The notes under the pieces: model-generated
What the model was told of the DNA's origin: nothing
What the model saw: only the letters and a program-made list of their open reading frames with translations
The model's database searches: none
Made by a program: the position numbers and the translations under genes
From: Eledone cirrhosa
Taxonomy: Eukaryota
Direction: 5' to 3'
NCBI GenBank assembly: GCA_964016885.1
Contig: OZ024761.1
Span: 15,004,001 to 15,068,000 of the forward strand
Length of the DNA: 64,000 nucleotides
Shown here: piece after piece, positions 1,806-63,919 of the stretch
Position numbering within the stretch: position 1 is the stretch's first letter
Layout of the letters: each line of letters starts with the position of its first letter

Positions 1806-1899
1806 AAATTGTAGTGTGAGATGTAATTATTATGATATCAATGTAAACCAGTTTGAAAGTTTCTCTGTTGATTCACCTGTCATCTGTTTCTGTCCTCAG

Positions 1900-2917
1900 G
1901 TTCTCCGAGAGTTCGAAAGAATGTAATCAGCTGCGTAACAGTTCCTGACAGCCCAGAGCTGGACCATATTTCTGCTGTAGCAGCGTCTGCTAGCAACTCT
2001 GCTGCCCCCCACACTGCTCGCAAACCTCTTACATTTACGCCCATTAAACATGAAATTACCTCCTCTTCCACCACCTCTTCCTCCGGCAATATTGCCAACA
2101 TCAAGGGCCTAGCAGCAGTCTCCTCTGCCTCATCTTCATCGTCGTCCTCTTCTTCATCCTCATCCTTGGGTGGCTGCGCAGTCTCGGCTGTCTCTGCGGC
2201 TACCACGAACACAGCCTTGCTCCCCGATAACAACTACGCCATCGCAGTCGCTGCCAACAACAGCAGTAGCAGCAATAATAATAATAATAATAATAACAAC
2301 AACGGTGGCAGCTACATTAAAAGCCACATGGTCCCTCCGAATCAAAGACAACATGTTCCCACATCCAGCAGTGTTGCCGCGATGAGAGCTACGTCAGCCT
2401 CCCTCTCGTTCATTCCACCCAACGTCGTGATGTCCGAACCATCTCGACACCACAAATACCGTGAGCAGGTGACGAAAACCTCCCCTTTCGTAACACACAT
2501 TCCCAAGCAGGAAGTCTCTTCGCTCTCCTCGTCTTTTCTCTCTTGTGCGCCGTCGACCATCGACCGACTGCACAGCAACCGAAGTCCAGTGAAACACGAG
2601 GTCAAGCCGCTTCCGTTGGAGGTCGAATTGACCAGCGCAGCAGCATCAATCCACAGTAAGCTTGCATACGTCTCTCCTACAGTCAGACTCAGCCAAAACC
2701 AGCCGCGAACACAACACGGCCTCTCATCTCATCGGAATTTCATTGGTCACCAGCCGGCCGGTACATTAGTAGCCACGGTCCTCAACAGCAAACAGCGTAT
2801 CCCCAACGGCCTCAGCAGTGCAGCACATAGCTCCTCTCAACTTTCTCCAGCTCATCCCAGTGTCCACATTGGACAACCTATCTTTCTAAATACTGGCTCT
2901 CAACTCGAAGTGCATAG
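1900..2917 (+). CDS. HIPK: HIPK internal coding exon
   Basis: Acceptor tctgtcctcAG (1898-1899); translates GSPRVRKNVISCVTVPDSP..., matching the HIPK2 motif KQRKNVISCVTVHDSP from memory; in frame with ORF 2166..2921; donor AG|GTAAGT at 2918 (phase 2). Confidence 0.93.
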
Positions 2918-3204
2918 GTAAGTGGACTGCCTTGTTTCCCTCCCATGTCTTCACCACCGCCACCACCACCACCACCACCACCACCACCGCCACTGACCAC
3001 TATTACCACTGACTACCCCACGCCCCTTCTCCAGATCTAATCCAATAAGTTGGACTCCACCTCTTCCTCTTCCTCTTCCTCTTCACAGTTTAACTGCTCC
3101 CACCCCACATTCAGCAAAGTGTGTGTATATATATCCATATATATATATATATATATGTGTGTGTGTACATATATGAAAGCATATATATATATATATGTAT
3201 TCAT

Positions 3205-16290: not shown

Positions 16291-17899
16291 CATCATCGTT
16301 TAACGTCCATTTTCCACGCTAGCATGGGTCTGGACGGGAATTGTCCCACTTGAGGCAAGATTGGTTGTCTTGCTCAGGACTGTCTGGCGGGTTTTCTACG
16401 GCTGGATGCCCTTCCTAACACCAACCACGTTTACAGTGTGGACTGGGAGGTTTTTACCGTGTTACCTACACGGCCACATTACAGCGTGGACTGTGTGTTT
16501 TTTTGTCGTGACACCTACACGACCTCATTTGTTTCGGACTGGATGTTGTGGTACCAACATAACTTCACATTTAAGGGGGTGGTGTGGATGGGGGTGTGGG
16601 TAGTGGGGCTGGGGTGTATTTTGTTAGAGGTGCCTACTGACTGTAGGTTTCGCTTTGTATTTAGGCAAGGCGGATCTTCTGTATAACTGTGTAGTGCCAA
16701 AGATCTCGGTCCAGTGACATTGTCTTAGAGAGGTGTAAGTGTGTGAGGTTGGAATTTATCAAGTCGTCCCAGGTTTTTCTGGGTCTGCCTACTACGTGGC
16801 TACCGTCTATTTTTATCGCCCTGCACATTTTTATACAGCTGTCGTCTTTCATACGCGTCACATGACCATACCAACATAGTCTTCTCTCAAGTAAACAACA
16901 TCTGATCCCTCTTATTCCTAATTTCTCCCTTAGTTCGTTTATGCTTTGCCATTCACGTATATTACTATTACACATCCAGTGAAGCATGCAAGCTTTGTTT
17001 CTCTCCAGTCTGCGTATATCCTCTGCACACAATGCCCAGGTCTCACTGCCATGTAACATTGCTGTTCGTATGCAGGCATCATACAGCCTGCCTTTCATTT
17101 TTAGAGAGAACCCTTTAGCGGCCAATAGTGGTATAAGCTCTCTGAACTTTTTCCATCCCGTTCTGACTCTAGCTACTGTACTTTCAGAGCACCCTCCCCC
17201 ACTGCTGATTTTGTCACCCAGGTAACGGAAGCTGTCCACTATTTCTATAGAACCATCTGTGCAATGGAATGAGCTAGTATTCTGTGGGCACTTGCTGCTA
17301 CTTATTGCACCAGAGCACCGGCCACATGTAAAATCTATGTTCTTGGTTAGCTTACCTGTGATCCCACTACATCTTTTATGCACCCATACTTTGCATTTAG
17401 GACATAAAATGGAGTTTCTACCTACGCCTTTCCTACACACTGAGCATGGCCATTTCCCAGATGGGACCGGTGCCCTATTTTCCTTCCTACAAACTAGAAC
17501 TTTAGTCTTAGACAAGTTAACTTTAAGGCCTTTTGATTCTAGGCCATGCTTCCATGTTTGGAATTTCTTCTCTAGTTACACCATTGATTCAGCTATGAGC
17601 ATTAGATCATCTGCATATAGGAGTTCCCATGGGCAGCCGGTCTTGAACTCCTCTGTTATAGCCTGAAGGGCAATAATAAATAGTAGGGGGCTAAGGACAG
17701 AGCCCTGATGAACACCAACTTTTACGCTAAACTCTTCACTATATTCGTTGTTAATTCTAACCTTGCTGACTGTTTCTTTATACATGGCTTGTATAGCTCT
17801 CACAAGCCATTCATCAATACCTAGTTTTCTAAGGGCCCACCAGATAATCGAGCGGGGTACTCTGTCAAAGGCTTTCTCCAAGTCAACAAAGGCTAAGTA
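16291..17899 (-). mobile_element. 5'-truncated RTE-type non-LTR retrotransposon (RT C-terminal half, 3' UTR, (GAT)n tail)
   Basis: AFVDLEKAFDRVP, GVHQGSVLSPLLF, LLYADDL, KTK, FRYLG, MLHGSETW, WYGHV, GRPRKTW; one in-frame stop at 17576-17578; ORF ends 16661; 3' end ...gctagcgtggaaaatggacgttaaacgatgatg. Confidence 0.95.
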
Positions 17900-18012
17900 T
17901 ATATATATAAATATGTATATTGGTGTGTATGTATATAAATATGTATGTATGTGTGTATGTGAATATATATGTATGTATATTATATTGTTTCTCTTTCTTT
18001 ATATAAATATAA

Positions 18013-19025: not shown

Positions 19026-20628
19026 TCTCCGTGACTAAACCGTAAAAAAATTGGGAGTGGTGTTAAGAGTTTTCTTTATTTTATGTGACAAATTGAGGAC
19101 CATAGTGCCATTGGGTTTCCAAGTGGTCAGGGGTTCACTGGGTTTATTTGAAGGCGAAAGTAACAAGGGAGTACATATAGCTCAGTGCAGAATACTTTTT
19201 CACCGGTATTTAGATCATTGACATATGAGGATAAACTGAAAAGTTCATAGGCTGGCCAAGTTACTCTCAAATGAGGTTTATTTTTTTCAATGTAGTCCCT
19301 GGAAAGGGTGGAATATTTCACAGCTCTAGCATCAATCCTTCATAGTCAGCCTATGAATGTTTCAGTCAATCCCTTTACATTGGCAATAGGGATAACATAT
19401 ACACATACACATAACAGGCTTCAGCACAGTTTCTGTTGACCAAATTTCATACAGAAAGTATCAGTCCACCAACCACAGCTGTTATAGAAGACAACTCACC
19501 CCTAAGTGTTGTGCTATAATGGAATCTAAAGCTGAACACAGCGCCTCATAGTTCTGAAGTGAACTCATTTACCACACAGCAATTTCCTGGATTTTGTTTG
19601 ATGGAGAAAGCAACAAGAGAGGTTGGTGCACAGGACAAAAACAAGCGGGGAAAGGACAGTCCCATCTCTGGAAAGGTTGATACTTTTTATTCCAGTGAAC
19701 ATTAGGATATAAAGAAACAAGTAGAGATAAAGATAGGATTAGTTATGCCTTTCAGCGAATTATACAAATATTTATTTTTATACACACACACATATATATA
19801 TGTATATTATAAATTATATATTATATATATATATATTGATATATATATATATTATATATTATATATTGATATATATATATATTATATATATCATATATAT
19901 ATTATATATGATATATATATATAAATATATATATATATACACAAATATATATATATATTATATATATATATATATTATATATATATAATATATATATTAT
20001 ATATATATATTATATATATATAATATATATATTATATATATATAATATATATATTATATATATATAATATATATATTATATATTATATATATATATATAT
20101 AAATATATATATATACACAAATATATATATATTATATATATATAATATGTATATATATATAAATATATATATATACACAAATATATATATATATTATATA
20201 TATCATATATATATTGTATATATATATATTGTATATATATATATTATATATATATATATCATATATATATTGTATATATATATATATTATATATATTATA
20301 TATATCATATATATATTATATATATATATATATATTATATATATCATATATATATTATATATATATATATAATATATATATTATATATATCATATATATA
20401 TTATATATATATATATAATATATATATTATATATATCATATATATATTATATATATATATATAATATATATATTATATATATCATATATATATTATATAT
20501 ATATATAATATATATATTATATATATCATATATATATTATATATATATATATAATATATATATTATATATATCATATATATATTATATATATATAATATA
20601 TATATATATATACACACAAATACATATA

Positions 20629-21513
20629 CGAGGTGTGCCAGAAAAGTTCCAGGACTGATGTCACAAAAGATTTATTTCAAACCCAAACTTCACTCTAAGA
20701 GTTTTCTCCTTCAAAGTAATCCCCCTGGAGTATGTAACTGTAATCTTAGCTCTCTGCAGCGATCAAACTTTTTTCTTCATAATTTTATATACATGTCCTC
20801 TGTTTCAGGTCGTCAAGCAATGAGCACAGAGCAATGAACAAACTTGAAGTTTCTGGTACGGTTGGGGAAAACTCCGTCAGAAGCACTGGGATTGCTGCAG
20901 CAAGTGTATGGAGATGAGACGATGTCACACTCACGTGTTTTTGAGTGGTGCAAGATGACCCCAGGAGCGGAAGGCCCTCAACAACCAGGACTCAGGTCAA
21001 CGTTGAGCGCGTCAGGCAGATGGTGCGTAGCGATCGTCGGCTGACCGTTCGACTGATGGCAAATGAGCTGGGCATGAATCGGGACAGAGTCTGCAAGATT
21101 CTCACTGAAGATTTGGACATGCGGAAAGTCTGCGTGAAGATGGTGCCAAGACTGCTGAATGATGACCAGAAGGGTGACGCATGCAAGTGTGCCAGGACAT
21201 CCTCGAGCGTCTTGAAACCGAACCAGACTTGCTAGGAACAGTCATCACCGGTGATGAGTCATGGATCTTCGAGTACGAGCCGGAGGGGACCCGTTTTGAA
21301 GACGTGGACGACATCAAAAAGGTTGTGACGACGGAACTGCAGAGGATCCCGGAAGAATCCTTCCAGGAGTGCATGCAAGCGTAGCAGAAAAGGATGGAAA
21401 AGTGCATTAGACTCCAGGGGGATTACTTTGAAGGAGAAAACTCTTAGTGTGAAGTTTGGGTTTGAAATAAATCTTTTGTGAGATCAGTCCTGGAACCTTT
21501 CTGACACACCTCG
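20629..21513 (+). mobile_element. Tc1/mariner DNA transposon, internally deleted, defective transposase
   Basis: TA on both sides, 103-bp terminal inverted repeats (20629-20731 / 21411-21513), frameshifted peptides KFLVRLGKTPSE, DDPRSGRPST, MVPRLL, VITGDESWIFEY, GDYFE; the region with the 2nd and 3rd catalytic Asp (YSPDL) is missing. Confidence 0.95.
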
Positions 21514-21823
21514 TATATGTATATATATATGAGAGAGAGAGAGAATTATAGTAGTATACAGTTTCCGGTAGTGTAATCAATTAATTTGATTATGTAACAA
21601 GAAACTGAAGCTACTTACAGTGGTATTTTAGTCAAAGGTCGAATTATTTCATTTGGTAAATCTTGTGGTAGTTCCTCCTTAGGTCCCACATATAACAATT
21701 TACAGAGTATTATTAAAAGCAACACATTTCAGAAGAGTGGGAATATCATTTATTACATAACACTAATAAATGGTATTTGCATTCTTCTGGAATGTAGTGT
21801 TTAAAATAATAGCTTTGTAAATT

Positions 21824-22481: not shown

Positions 22482-22784
22482 TATAATATATATATATGTA
22501 TGTATGTGTTATATATGTGTGTGTGTGTCAGTCGTGGATTCAATAAGGGGTAACCACAGTAAGTAAGTAAGGTACTCAATACATTAGTAGAGTGTGTACA
22601 ACAAATTTAATATAGAAATTTATATAAATATAAATATTTATATATAAATATGGGATAACAAGTTATCGTTATAGGTAATCCAGTTAGAGGTTGTGAGTAC
22701 TCTGCGTCGTGGATAGTTTATATATATATATATGTATGTATAAATATATATATATATGTATGTATGTATAAATACATATTTTTA

Positions 22785-23000: not shown

Positions 23001-23866
23001 CAAATATATATATATAAACTATCCACGATGCAGAGTATGTATGTATAAATATATATATATATATATATATGAAGGTATGTATAGTATATTTGGCAATATA
23101 CTGTATGTTTAATTAAAAACATTTTGAAGACCATTTGCTATGATTTTTATAGTAGTGACTATGTCACTTACTTATTCTCGGCAAAAGGAAAGAAGAGTTA
23201 TCGGCAATCCTGTTTCTCACTCCTTTGCTTCTGTCGAGGGTTATAGAAGCTGGATTCTTACAGAATTTTAGTAATATTTAAGAGCTGATTAAACAGCGGC
23301 TGTTGGTCCACCAAAAGTTTGGTATTAGTAATGGTGCTCTGAAATATCGATGTATACATTAATGTATGTATTGCTTTTGCCGAGAATAAGTAAGTGACGT
23401 AGTCCCTCCTTTAAAACTCATAGCGAATGGTCTTCAAAACAAATGTATAATCAGCTGATAGTGAAATAAGATAATTACAGCATTGTTAGAATATATAAGA
23501 TGTTTTTATAGATAGAAAATATTTATATAGTTTAACATATTTTATTGTGGGCCTAAATACCCAGATATGACCTGATATAACAAGAAGAGAAAATATTGAC
23601 TAAAGCCATTGTGATCACTAGTTGACTTCTGATGATAGGAATGTCTGAAAATATAAAATATAGATTATAAACAGGAATAGAAAATCTTTACAGTAAAATG
23701 AAAAAACTTTTTAGTTAAACATACAGTATATTGCCAAATATACTATACATACTTTCATGTATACATCGCTATTTGAGTACCAATGCTAATATATGTATAT
23801 ATGTATATATAAATATATATATATATGTATATATAAATATATAAAAATATATATATATATCTATAC

Positions 23867-24201
23867 GATATTAAATAAATGGAAACTATATTTATAAAAC
23901 CATATTTATTTCATTATATATATTTCAGGGATATCATATTAACAATATGCTATGCCTTCCTCAGACAAAATACAATATAAACAGTTTTATAGATAAATAG
24001 ATTTGTATTTTGTCTGAGGAAGGCATAGCATATTGTTAATATGATATCCCTGAAATATATATATTGAAATAAATATGGTTTTATAAATATAGTTTCCATT
24101 TATTTAATATCATAAATATACTCCAAATACTTGTCGAGTGCTTTTATATCAGTTATAAATATTTACTAGTTGTAACCCAACAATTTAAATATAACTTTCC
24201 A
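23867..24201 (+). mobile_element. Penelope-like fold-back with tail
   Basis: Arms 23867-23975 / 24003-24111; tail hairpin ACTC-caaatacttg-tc-GAGT 24120-24139. Confidence 0.8.
24003..24075 (+). ncRNA. Hammerhead-like motif in fold-back arm
   Basis: CTGAGGA (24014-24020)-aggcatagcatatt/aatatgatatccct-GAAA (24052)-TATATATA-TT. Confidence 0.6.
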
Positions 24202-24209
24202 TATATATA

Positions 24210-24255
<46 letters not shown>

Positions 24256-24365
24256 CATACAGTATATTATCAAATATACTATACATACATTCATGTATAC
24301 ATCGCTATTTAAGAGCACCAATGCTAATATATGTATATATGTATATATAAATATATATGTATATG

Positions 24366-24425
<60 letters not shown>

Positions 24426-24832
24426 TATACAGTATATTATCAAATATACTATACATACATTCATGTATACATCACTATTTCAGAGCACCAATACTAATAC
24501 CTAATTTGTGCTGGACCGGCAATGGCTCTGTTTAATCAGCTCTTAAACATTACTGGAATTCTATAAGAATCCACCTTCAGTAGAAGCAAAGGAGTGAGTG
24601 ATCTTGATAAATGCTAATGAGTGAGAAACAGGACTCTCGATCACTCTCCTTTGCTTTTGCCGAGAATAAGTAAGTGACATAGTCACTACTTTAAAACTGA
24701 TAGCGTATGGTCTTCTAAATGTTTTTAGTTAAACATACAGTATATTGCCAAATATACTATACATACATGCATGTATACATCGCTATTTCAGAGCACCAAT
24801 GCTAATATATGTATATATATATATATATATAA

Positions 24833-27921: not shown

Positions 27922-28327
27922 TATAAACGTTTGTATATGTATAATAAAGCCAAAACAATGCAGGTATGGACATAGAATAAAGAATGCAAATGCAAAAGAT
28001 ATTGTTGACAATTAGTCTTTTACCTTAGATTTATTTAAATGTCCTTAATTTTCCAGATAATATCTCTTCTTCAGAGGGAAGTAAAGCGGTTAAACCAGTG
28101 TTCTAAATAGCTTGCCAAGTCATGCATGACTTGGCAAGCTATTTAGAACACTGGTTTAACCGCTTTACTTCCCTCCGAAGAAGAGATATTATCTCGAAAA
28201 TTAAGGACATTTAAATAAATCTAAGGTAAAAGACTAATTGTCAACAATATCTTTTGCATTTGCATTCTTTATTCTATGTCCATACCTGCATTGTTTTGGC
28301 TTTATTATACATATACAAACGTTTATA
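27922..28327. mobile_element. 406-bp near-perfect palindrome (Penelope-like fold-back)
   Basis: 203-bp arms, no spacer, centre gtcatg|catgac (28124/28125), two mismatches seen; hammerhead-like motif in each arm. Confidence 0.85.
28171..28207 (+). ncRNA. Minimal hammerhead-like motif (mirror copy on - at 28042-28078)
   Basis: ccct-C(C/T)GAAGA-a-gagat-att-atctc-GAAAATTA-agg. Confidence 0.6.
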
Positions 28328-29148: not shown

Positions 29149-30136
29149 TCAAGGATGGATTCAGTTTGAAACCGGTTAGACCATTACTCAACAGAATACT
29201 CAATACTTGGGGTAGTAGAGTATGGTTATACTATAAAGAGTTGGGACCCAACAGCTGAGCTCTTGCCATTTCAACAGCTAGTTCTGGAACTACTTATAAT
29301 ATATATATATATATATATAGGAAAATATTTAACCCCGACAGCAGAGCTCAAGCCGTTTCGACGGATATTTCTGGACTCTAACATTTTCCTATTACTTACT
29401 CTACTACCCTAAGTATTGAGCACTCTGGTGCGTTATGGTCCACCTGGTTCCTTACCACACCTCCTTTGTTATATATATATATATATAGAGAGGGAGAGAG
29501 AAAGAGAAAGAGAGTATTATTAAAAACGCCATAATCTAGATGAGTAGGAATAGCTTTTACTGCAACACTTACACGTGTTTCATCATACGTATTATATATA
29601 AGTCTTGGAACGCTAAATTTGATTATTTCATTATTTTAATCAAAATTAATTCACATCCAACTACTTAGATATGTAGTTACAATGAATTTTCAAAGTGGAA
29701 TATAAATATATTGTATGTAAAGTATTGAACTTTCAAAACTCTGAGGTGTTATAAAGTTCATAGAAAATGTAGGAAACTCAACCACTTAAAATAACTGTAA
29801 ACACACTTGGTTACTAGAAATACATATTTTACACTCACTCACACATATATCTATGTAATACACATGCTTGCTGTATGTATATGATATGCATATGGTATGT
29901 GTGTATACATACACACATAAATGGAGTCTTGCTGTCTGAATGTGGCAAGTGGGGAAAAAAAAAACTCCTATCATTTGAAACTATCCATACAATTTCAAGG
30001 GCAAAACTCCCTTTCGAGATGTTTGGTCATGAAATGAAGCAGGGGAGATAACTTCTATAGCTTTAGCTGATCCAGCTTTTTTAAGACAATGTCATGAGGG
30101 TGGACCTTGTCTCTCTAAGCCAACTTGGTAAAAGCA

Positions 30137-35334: not shown

Positions 35335-35730
35335 AATCTACCAAAAGTTTACGGTAGTGTCCAATCCGTATGAAGAACTCAATGTAATCCGGATATCATG
35401 GAAAGAAGAGATGCATTCAAAAATCACTTTCGGTGAAAGATAAACGGAATACAGAGTCAAGATAAAATGTTAAAAAAATAATGAATAAAACAATGAAACA
35501 GTTCCTTATATTAAACAAAAAAAGTTCATTATTTAACGATTGTTTCTAGGACATATATGTGTTAGAATTGGCATGCATATTCAACAGATCTATGTACAAA
35601 ATTATACAAAATTATACAAACTATCAAATATAATATACATACCAACACATATATATGCCGTCTTCAGAAATTTTGTTTAATATAAGGAACTGTTTCATTG
35701 TTTTATTCATTATTTTTTTAACATTTTATA
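35335..35730 (-). mobile_element. Penelope-like fold-back with hammerhead and tail
   Basis: Arms about 35462-35520 / 35671-35729; partial second copy 39775-39972. Confidence 0.78.
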
Positions 35731-38187: not shown

Positions 38188-38420
38188 TTAAGAGAGTAAA
38201 ACAAAGAATCCTTTAATACATCAAAAGTTTTTATGATGAGTCCTTAATAGGACGAAACATTGTCGGCTAATAAAAACTTTTGATGTATTAAAGGATTCTT
38301 TGTTTTACTCTCTTAATTTTTTGGCTCTGTTTAACTGCATTGAGCTATACCTTTTACTGTCATTTCTATAATACGAAGAGGGTGTTTGACTCCAACACGC
38401 TCCAGTATTTTAATCCTTAT
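38188..38420 (+). mobile_element. Fold-back enclosing a hammerhead core, with tail
   Basis: Perfect arms 38188-38233 / 38271-38316; GCTC-tgt..gca-tt-GAGC 38324-38345. Confidence 0.8.
38234..38264 (+). ncRNA. Hammerhead ribozyme core truncated at the first C by an inversion junction
   Basis: TGATGA-GTCCT-taat-AGGAC-GAAAC-att-GTC, a canonical core. Confidence 0.8.
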
Positions 38421-39972: not shown

Positions 39973-40080
39973 ATATATATATATATATGAATGAAGTGTT
40001 GCCATGATAAAGGTAAAGGAAGGAAGAGTGCTCTATGTAAAGTACAGAGCTATTTAATTATGACATCCTTATTAAATTTT

Positions 40081-40149
40081 CCTTTCTGATGAACGACTTC
40101 AGACACCTCTATTGAGGTCGCCTGTCTTCGTGAAACCTTTGGTAAATGG
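40081..40149 (+). ncRNA. Hammerhead ribozyme
   Basis: ccttt-CTGATGA-acga...tcgt-GAAA-CC-ttt-GG-TA-aatgg. Confidence 0.82.
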
Positions 40150-41116
40150 AATAATTGTATTGTGTTCTGTATTACATAATTATATATATATATATTATCT
40201 GTCATAGAAATTCAATTCCATCTCTATATATTCCCTGTACAGCTAAAGCACCACCACCGCCACAAATACATACTACCACCCTCACCATCCTCACCACCCC
40301 CACTTCCTGTCCCGCCACACTGCTCACACTAACATACAACCTTCAAAGGGCTTTCATTCAAACGTCTAATTACAGTTGTGATGCTGCTAATTAATCAATT
40401 AATTAATCGGCTCGCTGTGTCCTGGGTTCAACTCCTACAAATGTCATCAGCGAGTTTGGGGGGAAAGGGGTCTCTGTAAAATTATGAACCGGTCCATTGG
40501 CAGTGAATTGGGTAAAATCATTAGGGTGTCGGTTCGAAAATGTGCCTCATGTTGGGTTTTTTTTTTTTTTTTTTTTTTTTCGGCTCTGTGCATTCTTGTG
40601 GCCTATAGGGGCCTACTACATTAATAGTTTTAATCCAATGATTCCTCCACCTCCATCACCATCACCACTACTACTATCACCTGACTCTTGGCTGTCTTTG
40701 GTGGAATCACTCTTGGGACAGACTTCCCCACTACCCTCCAGTTTTGAGGACACCTACCTCCTTCCATCCCCTAGTCTCGGAAGCCCTGAAAAGGGTGATG
40801 GGCACTACCCCTCCCCCCTCACTAAACAGAAGGGAGAGAGGGATAAAGAATAATAATTCCACCATTTGAAAGACATATTTTGGTATCTGGTGAGATTCCT
40901 CTACCAACATTTATGATAAGTCTTATCTTTATGATATGTCTTATTCTATTATTAGTCTTATTTTAATGATTAGTATTAGTTTAGGATTTTATTTCTTAAT
41001 TTCATTTTGTGCCTCCCCTTCCCCCCAGAAGAAAATACTCTTAATACTCATGTTACCCAATCTTTGAAAAGTATCCACCACCCTATTGTGTATCTCTCTC
41101 TCTGTCTCTCTCTCTC

Positions 41117-42947: not shown

Positions 42948-43350
42948 TGTAGGAGGTGAGTTTTATTGTAGTACAATAAAGCAATGCAGATATCGGATAA
43001 GAAGCACTCTACAGTTTGTAGGACTGGAGTATACATAATATAAGATCAAAAGATGGTTAAAGGAGTTCCATGTATTTTATTATGCGCATTTCAAAAACAA
43101 ACATCATCATGCAATAATATTTGTGTTTTCATCAGATAAAACAGGAGAACATGATATGAAGGCTAAAAAACACTTGTTGATAGTGCAGTTTTAAATCAAC
43201 ATAACTGCACTATCCACAAGTGTTTTTTAGCCTTCATATCATGTTCTCCTGTTTTATCTGATGAAAACACAAATATTATTGCATGATGATGTTTGTTTTT
43301 GAAATGCGCATAATAAAATACATGGAACTCCTTTAACCATCTTTTGATCT

Positions 43351-45463: not shown

Positions 45464-45662
45464 GGAAAAAAGTCAGAACCCCAACGGCTGAGCTCCAGCT
45501 GTTTCGACAGCTAGATCAGAACTGTTTGGATCTAGCTGTCGAAACGGCTGGAGCTCATTCGTCAAGAGTCCTGACTATTTTCCTATTACCCACTCTACTA
45601 CCATAAGTATTGAGTACTCTGGTGCGTTATGGTCCTCCTGGTATCTTACCACACCCTCTTTG

Positions 45663-57349: not shown

Positions 57350-57810
57350 TTTTGATAACCAGCAGCAGAGTTTATAGAGCAAAGATCAAGTCCAGTTCAT
57401 AAGTTGACATTATCAAGCCATTGTTTTGGCTGCTGGCCACTGCTTCTCTTACCAGCCAACCTTCCTTCCAGGTATAACCTACTCATACCACAAGTTCTTT
57501 TTATATGACCATATAGTTTGAGTACTCTTGACTTGACAATTCATGTAATTGGTCTAAGTTTGGTAATGTTGAGCAGCTCACTGATACAGATACGGTCGCT
57601 GAGCCGCTTGCCAGTCATAAGTCTCATGATGTGGTTCTGGAAGGTAGAGAGCTTCTGAAGTGACCTTGTCGTCCAATTAACACAGTCAAGACCATATAAC
57701 ACAGCTGGTAGGATGTAAGTATCAAAGATTTTAACCTTCAAATGATAGGAAACTTGTTTTGATGTTAGTACTACCTTGTTCTTGTTGAAAGCTGCCCAAC
57801 CTAGAGCATA
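57350..57810 (-). mobile_element. LINE (RTE-like) RT C-terminal fragment
   Basis: LGWAAF, KVKIFDTYILPAVLYGLDC, FQNHIMR, LKLYGHIKR, LEGRLAGKRSSGQQPKQWLDNV, with stops. Confidence 0.8.
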
Positions 57811-58080
57811 AGTATAGGTTATATCGAATATTATTATTATTTGATATGACCCATACTTATACACACATATATATATATAAGTATGGGTCATATCAAAACA
57901 AGTTTCCTATCATTTGAAGGCTAAGATCTTTGTGTAAGCTGGGGAAAAAACCATACAATCTTAACTCAAAATAAAATCAAGAATGAAATACTTAGCCTTC
58001 AATTTGGGGAAATCTTATATATATTTATATATAGTAAATTCTATAAATTGATAAGGCATTAAAATATTTAAAGCTCAGAG

Positions 58081-61425: not shown

Positions 61426-61981
61426 ATCAACACTTCTCCAGTGACAGCAGGCAGGATTTGAACTCAGAATGCACAGAGGCAAAACATATATTGTAAAGCA
61501 TCCCATCCAACATTTTAACAATTCTTATCCTCCAATCCTACTGAATTAGTACTTTGTTTAACAACCTTAAAAGGATAAAATGTAAAGTTGACCTCAGTAT
61601 GCTTTGAACTTGGAGTGCAGTGGGATAGATCAAACATGGTGGTATTTAATCATCTGGTGCATTGACAATTTTGCCAAATCACCAGTTGTGTAATGAATAA
61701 CTACCAGTTCTTCATTCCTGCAAAAACCTGTCCACACTTCCACAGAGCAATCAGTGTTGATAAAGACAATGATGATGATGATGAAAATGATAACGAAGAT
61801 CTTTTAAATAAGAGGTGCTAATAGGTCTCAACCAGCTAATGGCCTATGCCTGATAAAACATTTAAAAATAGAAGAAATGATAACATATACATGTGTGTGT
61901 GTGTTAGTAAGATACTCAATACATTAGTAGAGTGTAAACATTGTGTTTAATATAGAAGTGGCTTCTACTGCACTAGAAATC

Positions 61982-62120
61982 ACCACTTCTTGGCCTTTTG
62001 GCTAAGATCAAAGTGTATCTTTCCTTATCATCTTGATATCTGATCTGGTCCCTATATAGGACCATCAATATTAAACTGATTTTTAGAACTAGACAAAGAG
62101 TTAGGGGCTTGCTTTGCCAG
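61982..62120 (+). pseudogene. U2: U2 snRNA pseudogene (5' about 140 nt)
   Basis: accacttcttggccttttggctaagatcaaagtgta-tctttccttatcatcttgatatctgat resembles the U2 5' end; Sm-site-like gattttt and stem III ggggcttgct present; GTA deleted from the GUAGUA branch-pairing sequence; stem IV absent. Confidence 0.9.
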
Positions 62121-62365
62121 ATCATTTCTTTTTAATGGAACAGTTCTAGTCCTGTAGAAGCCACTTCTATATTAAACATGATCTATATATATCATCATCA
62201 TCGTTTAATGTCTATCTTCCACACTAACATAAAGAGTCAGGACCCCGACGGCTGAGCTCCAGCCGTTTTGACAGATCCGAACTATTACCCACTCTACTAC
62301 CCTATGTATCGAGTACTCTGGTGCATTATTGTCCACTTGGTTCCTTACCACACTTTATTTGTTTT

Positions 62366-63533: not shown

Positions 63534-63725
63534 ATGTTTAAACAGCCAGGGGCCATCTGTGGTGGGGTGTTGTTGCTCCTACTGGCCTCAACGTTTGGAG
63601 ATTCTCTACACAATTCTTCTGAACACACAACTCCCAAAAATGTACCTGAGGATCTGTTACTATTTCTTGCAGACAAATACGACTCCAAGCTTGGATATTT
63701 TGATTTGATGTCCCTCGTGCCTTTG
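63534..63725 (+). CDS. Probable first coding exon of an unidentified secreted or membrane protein
   Basis: accATG start, signal-peptide-like MFKQPGAICGGVLLLLLASTFG-DS, 64 non-repetitive codons, donor TTG|GTAAGA at 63726 (phase 0). An alternative is a 54-nt internal exon from the ttcttgcAG acceptor near 63671. Confidence 0.55.
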
Positions 63726-63919
63726 GTAAGATTTTTTTTTGTGTACGGTTTTCCTTATATTGTATATTGTTGTTACTATTACTGTTATTGATGTTGTAGT
63801 TGTTGTATACAAACATACATTCTATATAATATCTAAGTATCGAGTACTCTGGTGTGTTATGGGTCACCTGGTTTCTTACCACACTTTCTTTGTTATATAT
63901 ATATATATATGTATATATA

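Follow-up and report, generated by a model that had tools for sequence, protein, structure and literature searches.

Insertions of Penelope-like elements (PLEs) show the following anatomy: as described by Craig et al. (2021, PMC8557442), whose catalogue includes families from Octopus, they carry an inverted, 5'-truncated copy and a tail of 30-40 bp at one end only, and they lie in (TA)n targets. Junctions between the copies are mostly head-to-head (Arkhipova et al. 2013, PMC3846280), an arrangement for which antisense self-priming was proposed as a model (PMC3846280). The same paper, whose main text does not contain the word snRNA, describes intron-containing host genes and unnamed non-coding sequence of Adineta vaga caught between PLE terminal repeats, together with target duplications (PMC3846280). 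In vitro, a purified PLE protein introduces nicks into both strands of AT-rich DNA and extends each, using two start sites that bound the tail and lie downstream of a hammerhead (Frangieh et al. 2024, PMC11167929). Retrozymes are treated in a separate preprint (10.64898/2026.07.22.740005).

Small nuclear RNAs (snRNAs) form chimeras with LINEs in two described ways, namely template switching for U6/L1 and twin priming for inverted U1, U2 and U5/L1, the latter including inverted, 3'-truncated U2 set against L1; additionally, in mammals the most common class is that of snRNA retrocopies truncated at the 3' end (PMC4476161). In crocodilians, U2 also heads members of the SINEU families (Kojima 2015, PMC4494074). 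A literature search run mainly on titles and abstract openings, with few subscription journals and no Repbase, returned no snRNA-PLE chimera. The initial annotation of the locus described below had offered two readings, a template jump of a PLE-type reverse transcriptase onto U2 and a U2-headed SINE mobilized by a PLE, and had called both unusual; the published U2/L1 chimeras (PMC4476161) and PLE-repeat captures (PMC3846280) make them less so.

In the 64,000-nt stretch of DNA analysed here (the window), the sole Rfam match at gathering level is to U2 snRNA, at 61982-62167 (85.6 bits, E 1.7e-15, threshold 46, search over 64 kb). This U2 copy belongs to a fold-back insertion with the following parts:

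61885..61904, no strand: left target flank, a short (TA)/(TG)n microsatellite (from the sequence)
61905..61943, minus strand: tail, 35-39 nt, on the left copy only (83.6% over 55 nt to 22563-22617)
61914..61933, minus strand: bulged tail hairpin, 10 nt outside the arm end (folding; the shape recurs in other fold-back families)
61944..61978, minus strand: left arm, the 5'-truncated, tail-bearing element copy (33/35 nt match to the right arm)
61979..61981, no strand: head-to-head joint of 3 nt, either filler bases or else the genuine start of U2 with a 3-nt tandem duplication after it, the two being indistinguishable
61982..62118, plus strand: U2 snRNA pseudogene, nt 1 to ~137, 3'-truncated within stem-loop III (Rfam alignment)
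62119..62143, plus strand: 25-nt spacer, likely element sequence from upstream of the arm, containing one strand (the 5') of a weak stem that resembles half a hammerhead
62144..62178, plus strand: right arm, the tail-less element copy, maybe reaching 62182 (inverted match to the left arm)
62183..62192, no strand: target flank on the right, (TA)n, with an unrelated high-copy repeat after it (from the sequence)

The arms stand well above the background of the region, in which the best 35-nt pair in each of 15 shuffles matched at 19-22 positions, and they may run 4 nt further outward through a CA/TG pair that resembles CpG decay. U2 is in sense orientation with the tail-less right copy and antisense to the tail-bearing left copy. 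The outer ends are asymmetric: a conserved tail lies beyond one arm only, and symmetric terminal inverted repeats at both ends are lacking. The whole unit is flanked by nothing beyond 5-nt microsatellite matches, in a setting where flanking microsatellites can mask a target-site duplication; it has no poly(A) 3' tail, and no LINE 3' end with a target-site duplication was found around it as a whole. Several of these features had been called in the initial annotation. Its inverted arms are present at 61944-61978 and 62144-62178, its U2 segment from nt 1 to about 140 between them is upheld, and the duplications around U2 alone that it had proposed as the mark of an independent later insertion were not found at a length of 5 nt or more. 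Its statement that the 3' side of U2 is joined to sense element sequence holds for the orientation but not for the contact, 25 nt (62119-62143) lying between the two.

Position 1 of the Rfam U2 model falls on 61982. At the opposite end, the posterior probability of the alignment drops past ~62116 and stem-loop IV is unmatched, which places the true end of U2 at ~62116-62120 (nt ~135-140). Within the copy, the branch-point-pairing region has lost 3 nt (model positions 36-38), and 6 of 63 aligned strongly conserved positions carry substitutions (counted by eye on the Rfam alignment). The earlier description of U2 as intact at its 5' end is correct in that the copy begins at nt 1, but the copy has decayed. 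The 75 nt upstream of U2, where a promoter would sit, consist of element arm and tail. Since the promoter and stem IV are absent and the branch-point region is broken, the U2 copy is a dead retro-pseudogene, and a host function is unlikely for this one decayed locus.

The same observations bear on three further readings, namely that the match is a functional U2 gene or variant, that it was shaped by a U2-targeting element of the Utopia/Keno type, or that the fold-back is an assembly artefact, and we regard this group as highly improbable. A score so far over the Rfam threshold would suit a functional gene, and the 3-nt deletion, ending at model position 38, adjoins the Utopia/Keno target at nt 38/39 (PMC4640811), although slippage in a tandem triplet fits this deletion equally. 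Against these points, the copy is not full length, its branch-point region is broken, and element sequence occupies the place of the promoter, so that a functional U2 gene was rejected; a Utopia/Keno insertion was likewise rejected, U2 being continuous across nt 38/39 with nothing inserted there. The arms, moreover, carry mismatches at 2 of 35 positions, whereas a read fold-back would be expected to give an exact palindrome.

Compared with the systems introduced above, the unit most resembles insertions of the endonuclease-bearing PLEs (Penelope/Poseidon, Neptune, Nematis and Naiad). It shares their inverted, 5'-truncated copy joined head-to-head, their one-sided tail and their microsatellite target, the last a weak trait in a window so rich in microsatellites that simple repeat, as called by our masking script, makes up 10,855 of 64,000 nt. 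At 35-39 nt its tail is within the published 30-40, whereas most tails in the window are ~60-90 nt. The PLE capture in Adineta vaga is alike in framing unrelated sequence with PLE terminal repeats and unlike in that the cargo there consists of intron-containing genes or of non-coding sequence left unnamed, and target duplications accompany it (PMC3846280). Also unlike described PLEs, the U2 unit keeps only ~60 nt of element, without a reading frame and without a clear hammerhead, and the 3' ends visible in the Octopus Naiad consensuses lack its tail when compared by eye. In the curated Naiad/Chlamys supplement (PMC8557442), in which line wrapping may conceal some matches, 9 of 10 window motifs had none, and the single 9-mer that matched lies inside an apparent coding region. 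Tail patterns had no matches in metagenome contigs or in bacterial and archaeal genomes; in viral contigs a looser pattern matched twice, with flanks that have nothing in common with the element, and these matches appear to be due to chance. No long reading frame was present in the fold-backs translated from the window. The PLE-type reading of the initial annotation has thus gained a match to the published anatomy, as well as hammerhead motifs in three families with the same hairpin, but not a PLE protein tied to the tail, and as no PLE reading frame is linked to that tail, membership among the PLEs is assigned by architecture only.

In its 35-nt inverted repeats, its TA-rich flanks and the position of its hairpin close to one end, the unit also resembles MITEs and Helentron-type elements. 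A DNA element that captured a piece of a U2 gene is nonetheless a very unlikely source of this unit, whether it was a MITE, bounded by terminal inverted repeats, or an element of the Helentron type, whose repeats are subterminal and whose hairpin is at the 3' end. The window does contain a pair with long terminal inverted repeats (20623-21519; 109 nt at 96%), which we take to be Mariner-like. Against such an origin are the one-sided tail, the variable fold-back point of the family that we call A, the hammerhead motifs in the comparator families, and a captured piece that starts at the first base of the RNA without gene flank. A symmetric MITE was rejected, the conserved tail lying outside one arm only.

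Comparison with other fold-backs of the window provides the context in which the tail and its hairpin can be judged. A tail 21-mer is identical at 61913-61933 and 22573-22593 (two matches arose in 0 of 100 shuffles), within a longer alignment of 61903-61957 to 22563-22617. Folding confirms the tail hairpin that the initial annotation had placed at about 61914-61933, and the U2-free relative that it had reported at about 22530-22620 stands as regards the tail, through the exact 21-mer and the 83.6% over 55 nt, but has only the arm's last 12 nt in common; the tail of the 22.5-kb copy is also longer (~75 nt vs 35-39 nt). An overlap of 12 nt is a weak check of the relation between arms and tail family, whose absence the initial annotation had named as a refutation. 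Close to it, a short inverted pair (22698-22722 and 23016-23038) surrounds a SINE-like repeat, and 8 nt of it recur at the end of the tail at 22.5 kb. The units and positions drawn on below are these:

22530..22617, minus strand: related tail, ~75 nt, without U2 (12 nt of arm in common)
38192..38345, plus strand: fold-back with a Hammerhead_1 (type I) match in its loop and a one-sided tail hairpin (30.7 bits, below the threshold of 34)
39990..40179, no strand: head-to-head unit whose tail-bearing copy (minus) is very short and whose tail-less copy (plus) is longer and contains a hammerhead core at 40086-40135 (pattern scan)
45464..45660, plus strand: family A fold-back, with the hammerhead 3' half in the arm and the tail hairpin 8 nt outside the arm
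28916, 29150-29286, 29340, 39540, 45700 and 62231: other family A copies
14067, 22574, 24120, 29198, 36017, 37801, 38324, 40030, 43006, 45592, 45768, 57139, 61914 and 62291: bulged hairpins near one end of unrelated fold-back families (descriptor)

A masked self-comparison of the window gave 32 local inverted matches, which reduce to 22 fold-back units once 8 rows of one complex and 2 satellite rows are merged and 2 cross-pairs between neighbours are dropped. The shape that recurs in folded tails is built from an outer stem of 4 bp, a bulge on the 3' side and an inner stem that is short. A descriptor of this shape was drawn post hoc from the same examples, so that its figures are descriptive and do not amount to a test. 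It hits the window 16 times (mean of 20 shuffles, 1.6), and the hairpin lies at a distance of 5-15 nt beyond one arm in 6/22 units (both sides in 0/22, the opposite strand in 1/22); random placement yields a mean of 0.16 and a maximum of 2 in 2000 trials. A stricter descriptor retains 11 hits and 4/22 units. The hairpin is absent from the remaining 16/22 fold-backs. Where present, it is a concrete candidate for the signal that sets both PLE start sites.

Loops are short (0-35 nt) in 14 of 17 compact units, the other 5 of the 22 units being excluded as long or complex. In family A they measure 7, 11 and 14 nt, and because the fold-back point differs in this way among copies, the joint forms afresh with each insertion. 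Two fold-backs, at 35465-35726 and 57723-57932, have long loops (150 and 128 nt) without a gathering-level Rfam match. Near-perfect, young palindromes adjoining (TA)n occur at 27928-28321 (195/197 nt) and 43044-43349 (146/147 nt), and a complex nested tandem/inverted element at 23071-24807 has several tail copies and a second fold-back inside it, at 23864-24114. The initial annotation had suggested a search of other fold-back loops for cellular RNAs; at Rfam gathering level that search yields only the one U2. No tRNA genes were found in the window, and no spliceosomal snRNA is among the matches listed for 1-61900 (150 of 449 sub-threshold Rfam matches), nearly all of which are microRNA-like hairpins.

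Upstream of the tail and on the same strand, three other families with the tail hairpin carry complete or half hammerhead motifs, a further likeness to PLEs. The arm motif of family A (GAAAC, stem III, GUC) is the 3' half of a hammerhead. The type I match, at 38227-38277 (plus strand), lies inside the loop of a 43-nt perfect fold-back (38192-38312). The unit at 39990-40179 contains the only strict hammerhead core of the window and has no Rfam match; this core, at 40086-40145 on the plus strand, has a long stem II insertion and a 3-bp stem III. A strict scan for hammerhead halves gave 54 hits in the window, mainly in AT repeats. The U2 element has no Rfam hammerhead, and its relaxed hammerhead half at 62137-62156, spanning spacer and arm, is of a kind that occurs in the background at 60 of 1835 windows (3.3%).

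Collectively, these observations lead us to favour, with a probability of roughly 0.55, an origin of the U2 insertion in a single PLE event in which cDNA was primed on each target strand and the cDNA lacking the tail changed template to U2, continuing as far as the U2 5' end. At both outer ends of the unit an element copy terminates with its 3' end, as would follow if both target strands had served as primers. The orientation is the one that a template switch needs: U2 is sense to the tail-less copy, and one cDNA would consequently read through arm, spacer and U2 from 3' to 5'. Finally, U2 starts at nt 1, 0-3 nt from the joint, and no U2-gene flank accompanies it, which argues for an RNA template. 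In the sequence of events that we propose, a PLE endonuclease would have nicked both strands of an AT-rich microsatellite, as extrapolated from the in vitro behaviour of Poseidon. The left cDNA would have started at the far site and copied the tail and 35 nt of arm, and the right cDNA would have started at the near site and copied the arm and the 25-nt spacer. The right cDNA may then have jumped onto U2 at the 3' strand of stem-loop III and continued to the U2 5' end, after which the two cDNA ends would have been joined. The placement of the tail hairpin, the hammerhead motifs of the comparator families, the varying fold-back point of family A and the lack of a duplication of 5 nt or more around U2 alone also favour this reading. 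Speaking against it are the negative search for a PLE reading frame tied to the tail, the relaxed hammerhead match in the element and the sub-threshold or unmatched ribozymes of two comparators, the 16 units that lack the hairpin, and tails in the window that are mostly longer than published. What the sequence itself shows is the geometry, the U2 5' boundary, the decay and the repeated occurrence of the architecture; the enzyme, the switch and its timing, the succession of steps and the single occurrence are inferred.

The chimeras of snRNAs with LINEs, formed by template switching (U6/L1) or twin priming (inverted U1, U2 and U5/L1), are alike in that a 3'-truncated, 5'-complete snRNA shares one insertion with a retroelement end and runs opposite in sense to one element copy (PMC4476161). 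They are unlike the present unit in their partner, which is PLE-like here rather than a LINE, and the U2 unit has neither poly(A) nor a target duplication. Because 60 nt of element stand between U2 and the target DNA, double priming and the switch would both be required.

Part of the same evidence can be read in another order, with the fold-back formed first and a U2 cDNA inserted later, by LINE-type retroposition or by break repair at the hairpin tip; this we consider quite unlikely. Removal of U2 would leave a loop of 25-28 nt, inside the range of most compact units, and later capture fits in so far as a U2-free loop of this size is of ordinary length. In its favour, the window holds fragments of reverse transcriptase, in broken non-LTR frames at 16661-17998 (minus strand), that we take to be RTE-like. 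The abundance of 3'-truncated snRNA retrocopies in mammals also favours this order (PMC4476161). Against it, U2 has no flanking duplication of 5 nt or more and no poly(A), although capture by repair leaves no duplication in any case, and the U2 5' end lies at most 3 nt from the joint, a coincidence that random insertion into a 28-nt loop would produce in ~15% of cases by simple arithmetic.

A further rival retains the PLE machinery and makes U2 a standing part of the element. Here the RNA of a non-autonomous family would consist of U2 head, spacer, arm and tail and would be mobilized by a PLE, and the unit would represent one full-length, tail-less copy and one truncated, tail-bearing copy. 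We think it doubtful that such a SINE-like, U2-headed family exists, inserting as head-to-head pairs and recognized through a bulged hairpin common to many unrelated PLE families. It predicts the same geometry as a one-off switch, and a multicopy family should be met more readily in a random window. U2 seems more diverged than the arms (6/63 vs 2/70, p = 0.15; the gap shrinks if the arms include the CpG-like pair), which faintly suggests that the head is older and was carried by a family. Precedent exists in the crocodilian SINEU, whose U1- or U2-headed members likewise set a U2-derived 5' head on a non-U2 3' part, but these are multicopy, end in poly(A) and are moved by Tx1 LINEs, whereas the 3' end of the U2 unit is PLE-like (PMC4494074). 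Additionally, an Octopus vulgaris annotation includes SINE/U (369,490 bp) and U-L1 (52,753 bp), identified by label (PMC13282606); the window, which is eukaryotic, looks octopus-like in its repeats. Several observations speak against the family: the 64 kb contain one U2-bearing copy against at least seven copies of family A; the sole relative of the tail is without U2; U2 has no internal promoter (PMC4494074); and recent SINE/U insertions in the octopus annotation average ~730 bp (13,954 bp over 19), against 280 bp for the unit (PMC13282606). Neither the 3' part of U2 nor the 25-nt spacer recurs elsewhere in the 64-kb window, and the supplement of a mollusc SINE paper (PMC4758252) gave no matches in the four files searched. 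Such a family, if real, would represent a new pairing of SINE and partner.

If a PLE reverse transcriptase switched to a capped, single-stranded snRNA and copied it up to the very first base, the template strand can be read from the insertion; in that event, the insertion would favour double priming, with sense RNA as the template, rather than the model of antisense self-priming (PMC3846280). It would also widen the formation of snRNA chimeras from LINEs to the telomerase-related class of PLEs.

Outside the repeats, two coding features were observed near the ends of the window. A large host exon at 1872-2921 (plus strand) has 63% identity over 206 aa to a 1378-aa protein kinase, and a Met-start open frame at 63534-63730 (plus strand) may be an exon of a secreted protein: it includes a hydrophobic stretch like that of a signal peptide, and towards its end there is a possible splice donor.
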